Shown one piece after another: positions 38,548 through 39,641 of a stretch of 64,000 nt of DNA. Below the pieces are notes generated by a model, which saw nothing but the letters and a program-made list of their open reading frames with translations, had not been told where the DNA came from and ran no database searches. The first letter of the stretch is position 1, and each line of letters begins with the position of its first letter. The DNA is from Escherichia coli (GTDB lineage Bacteria; Pseudomonadota; Gammaproteobacteria; Enterobacterales; Enterobacteriaceae), in NCBI RefSeq assembly GCF_003018255.1, contig NZ_CP027440.1. One strand, given 5' to 3'. The position numbers and the translations under genes were made by a program.

Positions 38548-39273
38548 ATGGATGTTGCCTGCTCTGTGGTCCTGATTCGCTATCCGATAGATATTTTTCT
38601 TGAAAAAGAAAAAGTTTCACTCGATGCCGGAAGTGTTATGCTTGTTGCCAGAAATATAAGAGGGCTTTTCTGTGCTTATGCCGACAGAGTGAAAATGGCA
38701 GATATAAGTAACAGCGTCGTCAATCAGTATCTGGAAAGGGAGTGTGAACTGACGGAGTATACACCGACAAAAATGCCTCTTTATTTGATGTCTGATATTT
38801 ACAATACGGAACTGGCGGAGGCTTTAATAACCCAGCATAGTGAATCCAGTGATACTTTGAAGGATTTCTCTGTTATAACCGCATTTTCATGTATCTCCTT
38901 ATTTGCAACAGACAGACGTCTGCCATTATTTTTGTCCGGTGCTGTAAATAATATCAGCTGTAAAGTAAGGGCTATAATTCAGACCGACATATCGGCAGGC
39001 TGGATGCTTGGTGTGATTGCATTACAATTGCATATGAGCGAAAGCTTGTTGAAGCGAAAACTTAAGGATGAAGGTTATAGCTTTAGTCGGTTGTTGCTGG
39101 AGGAGCGAATGCGTGTTGCTGTTAATCTTGTATGTTTCCAGCGAGAGTGTGGACAAGCGATAGCGGAAAAATGTGGTTACTCAAGTAAGTCCTACTTCAT
39201 TTCTGTATTTCACCAGTATTATGGTGCACCACCTGAGAGCTATGCATATTTGCAGAAAGCAGACGTTATCTGA
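38548..39273 (+). CDS. AraC-family transcriptional regulator
   Basis: 241 aa; C-terminal AraC-type HTH (...QAIAEKCGYSSKSYFISVFHQYYGAPPESY); low-GC. Confidence 0.75.
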   Translation: MDVACSVVLIRYPIDIFLEKEKVSLDAGSVMLVARNIRGLFCAYADRVKMADISNSVVNQYLERECELTEYTPTKMPLYLMSDIYNTELAEALITQHSESSDTLKDFSVITAFSCISLFATDRRLPLFLSGAVNNISCKVRAIIQTDISAGWMLGVIALQLHMSESLLKRKLKDEGYSFSRLLLEERMRVAVNLVCFQRECGQAIAEKCGYSSKSYFISVFHQYYGAPPESYAYLQKADVI

Positions 39274-39362
39274 TGTTTTTTCATCAGGCATATATTGATT
39301 GACTGTATTAGATATAGTCTGAATGTGTTCAGCATAAAAAGTTATAATCATTTGGTGTTTGC

Positions 39363-39641
39363 GTGAATATTGATGAGAAAATCAGATGTAGCCAACTGTT
39401 ACAGCGTATTGAAGCCGTCAATGTGGAACGAACAAAGGTCTTCAGTCGTCTGACAGTTTTATTTTGTACCCCTGATCGACGTTCAGGTCAGGAGATGGTT
39501 CTTCTGGATGTAGATGCACTTCGGAACGTCTGTGAGGAGTTCACCGCGGCTAATTCGGAGTTACTGAGTCTTGTTCAGGAGTACAACAGAATTGCAGGTA
39601 GTAACGGTTTTGATGAAATCAAAATTATATCCCGTGGATAA
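39363..39641 (+). CDS. hypothetical small protein downstream of AraC-family gene
   Basis: 92 aa ORF with GTG start; no recognised motif. Confidence 0.3.
   Translation: MNIDEKIRCSQLLQRIEAVNVERTKVFSRLTVLFCTPDRRSGQEMVLLDVDALRNVCEEFTAANSELLSLVQEYNRIAGSNGFDEIKIISRG

Follow-up and report, generated by a model that had tools for sequence, protein, structure and literature searches.

The subject of this analysis is a gene for an AraC/XylS-family transcriptional regulator, together with the small open reading frame (ORF) downstream of it, in a stretch of 64,000 nucleotides of Escherichia coli DNA (contig NZ_CP027440.1, assembly GCF_003018255.1; hereafter, the window). In the ORF list of the window the regulator gene lies at 38548..39273 on the + strand; its 241-aa product, assigned by sequence to the Psr clade, has a predicted β-rich N-terminal regulatory domain and a C-terminal DNA-binding domain with two helix-turn-helix (HTH) motifs. 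On the same strand, at 39363..39641, it is followed by a gene with a GTG start for a 92-aa phage protein (hereafter, ORF92), which matches phrog_2873 (E 1e-46). The first-pass annotation had described a low-GC AraC-type regulator and a downstream 92-aa ORF, lying after the first unit of a repeat and before units 2-5, and in this it was right. The guanine-cytosine (GC) content is 0.413 in the AraC gene and 0.430 in ORF92, against 0.54-0.56 in the flanking methyltransferase and esterase genes, and the GC content at third codon positions (GC3) is 0.39-0.40 in the former pair and 0.62 in the latter. The stated coordinates are correct as well, and the repeat consists of five copies of the small RNA (sRNA) gene STnc100 (Rfam RF02076).

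Relatives and predicted structure of the regulator

The 241-aa product matches Pfam HTH_18 at residues 158-232 (E 5.9e-12) and gives two HTH_AraC matches, so that the dual-HTH region of the AraC/XylS family is present; it also matches phrog_1450 (E 4.8e-92). Among the NCBIfam models, the best similarities were to YdeO (residues 1-230, E 1.4e-34) and to GadX, the latter over the C-terminal half only. Since the scores, 119.8 bits for the YdeO equivalog NF007407 (cut-off 348) and 92.6 bits for the GadX equivalog NF007432 (cut-off 500), lie far under the cut-offs, the regulator is not an orthologue of either protein. Judged by its sequence, it is a paralogue in the YdeO/GadX/GadW/AppY/PatE subfamily and an orthologue of none of its members. 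The K-12 regulators of this subfamily share its two-domain layout, but only at 26-34% identity (GadW 34%, YdeO 29%, AppY 27.5%, GadX 25.5%); one of them, AppY, is likewise prophage-borne (DLP12). The N-terminal motif M..VCSV is common to the window regulator, YdeO, GadW, AppY and PatE, not to GadX, and this shared N-terminus supports the annotated start.

Apart from its own cluster (99-100% identity), the relatives retrieved in database searches were only E. coli and Shigella proteins of 236-242 aa, at 54-63% identity. Two paralogues of E. coli O157:H7 align with the window protein end to end (99% of the length) at 58-60% identity; they form the clusters P0015 (= ECs_1087 of strain Sakai, prophage Sp4) and P0025, which are 89% identical to each other. 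According to reviews (PMC10877973, PMC8565820), PsrA and PsrB share 90% identity, occur only in prophages and are found in association with Pch regulators. As the mutual identity of the two clusters matches the published value, and given their prophage/pchA context, we infer that they correspond to PsrA and PsrB. The O157 copies were traced by DNA search: in Sp4 of Sakai the order is Q, CAAX protease, small ORF, AraC gene (ECs_1087), ileZ/argN/argO, STnc100, esterase-like gene, IS629 and pchA, while the position of the second O157 copy was not located.

PsrA and PsrB (z1789 and z2104 in strain EDL933) resemble the window regulator in being full-length AraC/XylS proteins (237-241 aa) with near-identical recognition helices, encoded by low-GC genes at the lambdoid Q-to-lysis site, with phage tRNA genes and STnc100 nearby. 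The window regulator differs from them in belonging to a distinct allele class, found in non-O157 named serotypes. By sequence it falls into the Psr clade of AraC-like prophage regulators, a placement that leaves current concepts unchanged and will not surprise the specialist. PatE (z0321 of EDL933, prophage CP-933H) is more distant, at 36-37% identity; it is prophage-borne too, has a similar length, aligns over 233 residues without gaps and shares the M..CSV N-terminus and the segment SESLLKRKLK. We rejected the window regulator as a PatE orthologue on account of this identity and of its other prophage position, PatE being encoded at the end of a degraded prophage beside tail-fibre and invertase genes, and the window regulator in the interval between Q and lysis. 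The first-pass suggestion of a prophage-borne AraC-like regulator of the virulence and acid-resistance type is borne out, as far as sequence can tell, by the lambdoid late-region context and by the identities to the O157 paralogues and to PatE.

The likeness to the Psr clade is strongest in the DNA-binding domain, which is 71-77% identical to that of the clade (72-73% to the O157 paralogues), and in which the two recognition segments, SESLLKRKLK and GYSSKSYFISVFHQYYG, hardly differ; for the N-terminal domain, identity to the other members is 43-57% (46-48% to the O157 paralogues). In the AlphaFold2 (AF2) model, with a predicted local distance difference test score (pLDDT) of 89, a β-rich N-terminal domain is joined to a seven-helix C-terminal domain. 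The closest solved full-length folds found by Foldseek were Rns, CsvR and ToxT (6XIU, 9GFP, 3GBG), with E 4e-10 to 2e-7 over ~250 columns (Rns E 3.9e-10). These proteins have the same two-domain fold as the predicted model and detectable sequence similarity, but only 16-19% identity to the window regulator, and their target regulons differ. The predicted C-terminal domain superposes on the DNA-binding domain of GadX (3MKL) with a root-mean-square deviation of 1.3-1.5 Å, at 41-43% identity, and a sequence-only search of the PDB retrieved the same GadX domain (E 1.9e-18), as well as Rns, CsvR and ToxT.

Integrity, selection and carriers

The regulator gene is intact and under purifying selection. 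Compared with four diverged alleles, the gene as a whole has a ratio of nonsynonymous to synonymous substitution (dN/dS) of 0.16-0.23 (~0.17 as a single figure); for the DNA-binding domain the ratio is 0.07-0.15 and for the N-terminal domain 0.25-0.31, with dS > 1.4 in all the comparisons that involve the window allele. The stretch from the AraC gene to ORF92 was found in 79 of 5426 complete E. coli genomes at an identity of at least 99.4%, with full query coverage in 78 of the 79, three carriers having been inspected base by base; when a 1.3-kb AraC-ORF92 query was run genome-wide, its embedded tRNA genes matched nearly every genome. Several genomes carry a 1-bp length variant, the only one examined, in the loop T-run (T5, e.g. 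CP023541; O104:H21 CFSAN002236) of a hairpin, CTGATG-TTTTTT-CATCAG, which was read from the sequence across the AraC stop codon (39270..39287, + strand); in effect this indel is intergenic and both ORFs remain intact. The sole disrupted copy among the 79 carriers is that of E. coli RM10410 (NZ_CP042350; L020 in our numbering of the compared loci, 3001-4921), in which an IS4-family element (insertion sequence, ISVsa5-like) near the 3′ end of the AraC gene replaces the last residues of the product and parts the gene from ORF92. The first-pass annotation had named a truncated or frameshifted relic in homologues as an outcome that would refute it; with a full-length match in 78 of the 79 carriers, purifying selection and intact inspected copies, the regulator is no such relic.

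Named serotypes of the carriers include O113:H21, O91:H21, O22:H8 and O104:H21, and many of the strains are labelled as E. coli that produce Shiga toxin (STEC) or come from cattle. These four serotypes are classically negative for the enterocyte effacement locus (LEE). The part of the Psr phenotype that concerns LEE and the type III secretion system (T3SS) may not apply in these carriers: if the hosts are indeed without LEE, repression of T3SS is inapplicable as a read-out. The window allele extends the Psr family to genomes with named non-O157 STEC serotypes, often of cattle, and in LEE-negative hosts acid resistance would be the only conserved output, which bears on gastric passage and food safety.

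Late-region setting, ORF92 and STnc100

The genes around the regulator follow the order of a lambdoid late region: the Q antiterminator gene and two small ORFs, an intact DNA methyltransferase gene (35885-36943), a tRNA pair, tRNA(cat) and tRNA-Arg(tcg) (36984-37145), a gene for a TolA-like lipoprotein, STnc100 copy 1, a 3′ fragment of a methyltransferase gene, the AraC gene, ORF92, STnc100 copies 2-5, a gene for a SASA/NanS-p-type esterase of 654 aa (41138-43102), holin and lysozyme. The locus corresponds to the 'moron' interval that a lambdoid prophage has between Q and the lysis genes. In Stx phages this interval is the site of stx; no stx homologue is present within the 64-kb window.

The wording of the first-pass annotation, by which the regulator is embedded in the repeat array, stands for the position of the two ORFs between the copies, but not for an insertion into a pre-existing tandem array. 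The sequence that follows STnc100 copy 1 (38172..38276, + strand; repeat families D6-D8), which contains a terminator-like hairpin on the minus strand (38200-38179, terminator scan), is repeated after copy 5, at 40912-41025. The dead methyltransferase fragment (38320..38471, + strand), annotated as a pseudogene in RefSeq relatives, runs straight into the AraC gene; it matches the end of the intact gene, 1.5 kb upstream (36788-36939), at 82% identity. Other E. coli prophages (L008-L010 in our numbering of the compared loci) have an intact methyltransferase-AraC junction with which the stretch 38320-39244 is colinear. Because of this duplication and this colinearity, the arrangement is best described as two late-region modules joined together, a scar of module shuffling, with the methyltransferase fragment marking the left edge of the imported AraC module.

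The Q-to-lysis position holds for all the Psr-like genes examined, while their neighbours vary: methyltransferase, CAAX protease, tRNAs, STnc100, stx, TerB and holins of different types. The Psr-like genes show the pattern of an independently mobile moron, which fits these variable neighbours better than a local regulator does. In the phage phiSTEC1575-Stx2k (OQ243220; L017, 5001-7324), deposited as complete, a Psr-like AraC gene whose product is 59% identical to the window protein lies immediately upstream of the tRNAs in front of stx2A/B; since it adjoins these tRNAs, regulator and toxin would be on one late transcript. The regulators of several lambda-like phages stand about as far from the window protein as PatE does, at ~37% identity.

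ORF92 is, by sequence comparison, a real conserved gene. In L007, L011 and L013 a homologue found by tblastn (61-63% identical, 92 aa, GTG start) is situated downstream of the Psr-like gene, and 92-aa ORFs occur at the equivalent position in L021-L023, as judged by position and length only. Its dN/dS is 0.26-0.33 at dS ~0.9-1.0. The family is narrow (18 matches among 1.84 billion representatives), and the gene is unannotated in the RefSeq carrier records CP031898, CP023541 and CP042350. No Pfam match was obtained for ORF92, and a PerC/Pch-like regulator was ruled out for it on the same ground. The AF2 model (pLDDT 89) has a helix at residues 3-33, a β hairpin at 39-46 and a second helix at 50-81, a predicted prefoldin-β-like antiparallel hairpin; no significant relative was found among solved structures, the best being prefoldin β (E 0.08), followed by generic coiled coils, and the matches in the AlphaFold database (AFDB) were only uncharacterised enterobacterial or phage proteins. 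The AGGAG Shine-Dalgarno sequence of the homologues is degraded, and weaker, in the window allele.

ORF92 is a frequent, not an obligate, neighbour of Psr-like genes, because each occurs without the other and because tRNA genes lie between the Psr-like gene and the ORF92 homologue in L011 and L013. Psr-like genes without ORF92 are those of Sakai Sp4 (L002/L006), L008-L010, L012 and phiSTEC1575, and ORF92 is found without an AraC gene in the phage mEp460_ev081.

All five STnc100 genes are full-length on the + strand, each covering model positions 1-206 of 206 at 119-172 bits (gathering score of the covariance model, 47 bits). Copy 1 (37959..38171) scores 172.4 bits and ends in an intrinsic terminator-like hairpin (38141-38160); copies 2-5 (39931-40126, 40190-40399, 40460-40659 and 40721-40910; repeat families D1, D2 and D4) score 119-141 bits, and in the terminator scan most of the copies ended in a terminator-like hairpin of their own. 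As they are only ~62-91% identical among themselves, the copies are diverged paralogues and not the product of a recent tandem amplification. A recent preprint on the distribution of STnc100 does not mention AraC or Psr regulators.

Proposed function and rival explanations

Reviews (PMC10877973, PMC8565820) report that PsrA and PsrB induce GadE and YhiF, that both PsrB and PatE have the hdeA promoter (-132 to -45) as a site of action, and that the gadE promoter is also bound by PsrB. On balance we consider it probable, with moderate confidence, that the window gene is an intact, selectively maintained AraC/XylS regulator of the Psr type, carried as a moron in the Q-to-lysis interval, which activates the gadE/hdeA acid-resistance regulon of the host. 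The role in acid resistance is proposed by homology: the recognition helices are conserved, and the relatives have published activities of this kind. The regulator would bind AT-rich sites through its two HTH motifs, the recognition helices of which are almost identical to those of PsrA/PsrB, and would activate promoters of the acid-fitness island (gadE, hdeAB, gadBC), like PsrA/PsrB, PatE, YdeO, GadW and GadX; the glutamate-dependent acid resistance of the lysogen would be raised as the outcome.

The ~75 bp upstream may hold a weak promoter from which the gene itself could be expressed; a -10-like hexamer, TATACT, is present there at 38509-38514, with TATAAT-like hexamers at a comparable position in the homologues (five alleles aligned). 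Alternatively, it may be reached by Q-antiterminated late transcription after induction, jointly with the flanking STnc100 sRNAs; the terminator-like hairpin of STnc100 copy 1 lies just upstream of the AraC gene, and Q-antiterminated late transcription, as established for lambda, would read through it after induction.

Several points weigh against this proposal. A consensus scan found no σ70 promoter upstream of the AraC gene, sites being no more frequent than in shuffled sequence, and the low GC content suggests silencing by H-NS, so that the gene is perhaps poorly expressed in lysogens. With 58-60% identity overall and 43-57% in the N-terminal domain, the regulatory inputs and even part of the target set could differ from those of PsrA/PsrB. 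The very use of these names for the O157 paralogues rests on the identity match and the context, not on locus tags. Moreover, reviews place psrA (z1789) in OI-50, and no Psr-like gene was found in the region of EDL933 that we took as OI-50 (L005; NZ_CP008957, 1630001-1680000); the mismatch may reflect a re-assembly or numbering issue of the EDL933 prophages. The prophage in this region lies beside potAB/pepT, the position expected for OI-50, and carries nleL, espN and espK. A pch gene, which lies ~4 kb from the Sakai Sp4 copy, is missing too: pchA of Sp4 gave no tblastn match in the window, the far end of the prophage being outside it and T3SS effector genes not having been searched for. The Pch/T3SS-effector association of PsrA/PsrB, which is descriptive rather than a strict criterion, is to this extent not seen within the window, for pch only. 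Finally, a literature search found no publication on this regulator allele.

Some of these observations would also be expected if the gene were a silent passenger, repressed by H-NS or promoterless in lysogens and conserved merely through a recent spread of the prophage, with no effect on the host. To the lack of a consensus σ70 promoter and the GC content of 41% within a region of ~54% can be added that all 79 carriers are at least 99.4% identical, so that selection within the allele is not measurable, and that one of them tolerates an insertion sequence in the AraC gene. We nevertheless consider a silent passenger unlikely: purifying selection against the diverged alleles is clear (dN/dS 0.16-0.23 at dS > 1.4), in many lineages the same phage position is taken by one or another allele, a -10-like hexamer is kept at a comparable upstream position in all five aligned alleles, and deletion of psrA in O157 gives a phenotype (PMC10877973). 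That the regulator mainly serves the phage, with the late cargo (STnc100 sRNAs, NanS-p esterase, ORF92) or the choice between lysis and lysogeny under its control and not the regulons of the host, is distinctly unlikely. Its fixed position between Q and lysis, beside STnc100 and an esterase gene in several phages, and its presence in phiSTEC1575-Stx2k, a phage whose genome was deposited as complete, would suit such a role, but the neighbours are inconstant (CAAX protease, methyltransferase, tRNAs, stx, TerB, differing holins) and the closest characterised relatives all target chromosomal acid-resistance genes.

It is very improbable, in our judgement, that the AraC gene and ORF92 form a functional pair in which ORF92, as an anti-activator or co-factor, would bind the regulator and modulate it. 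A homologue or a 92-aa ORF does occur ~90-300 bp downstream in seven contexts (the window, L007, L011, L013 and L021-L023), ORF92 is under purifying selection, and the predicted two-helix antiparallel hairpin has a shape that is common among protein-binding modulators, with weak, non-significant fold resemblances that include the TraM anti-activator. Against the pairing stand the Psr-like genes without ORF92 (Sakai Sp4, L008-L010, L012, phiSTEC1575), the ORF92 without AraC gene in mEp460_ev081, the tRNA genes that intervene in L011 and L013, the degraded Shine-Dalgarno sequence of the window allele and the lack of significance of the fold matches, the best of which reaches E 0.08. Just as doubtful is the wider view of the AraC gene, ORF92 and the five STnc100 genes as a single host-reprogramming cassette at the stx-equivalent locus, with ORF92 binding and tuning the regulator; if true, it would provide the lysogens, in hosts thought to be LEE-negative, with an acid-resistance switch coupled to the state of the prophage.

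Through prophage AraC-like regulators such as PsrA, PsrB and PatE, phages are known to adjust both the acid resistance and the virulence of O157:H7. The present locus makes a modest addition: a host range beyond O157, a conserved small gene missed by annotation (ORF92) and five sRNA genes at the same place. It shows that a regulator, a small gene absent from the annotations inspected and several sRNA genes can be housed jointly at the stx-equivalent site of lambdoid phages.

Other genes of the prophage deserve brief mention. The first phage tRNA gene of the pair at 36984-37145 is called tRNA-Met(cat) by ARAGORN and tRNA-Ile (ileZ type) in RefSeq relatives; the third tRNA gene of Sakai Sp4 and phiSTEC1575-Stx2k (argO, tct) is not present in the window pair. 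The ORF at 37424-37852 (+ strand, 142 aa) starts with a lipoprotein-like signal (…LASLTTGC), and its C-terminal part matches TolA domain III (NCBIfam TolA, E 3e-29; phrog_5772). The gene is labelled 'TolA' in RefSeq and occurs also in the late region of the phage mEp460_ev081; its product could be a TolA mimic, for example one that excludes Tol-dependent colicins or phages. A role in a defence system found no support for the regulator, ORF92 or the TolA-like protein, none of which gave a PADLOC match. A sok antitoxin RNA (RF01794, 117.7 bits) at 31548-31722, between the early and late parts of the prophage, indicates a toxin-antitoxin locus of the hok/sok type; most of the related prophages examined likewise have this element upstream of Q.

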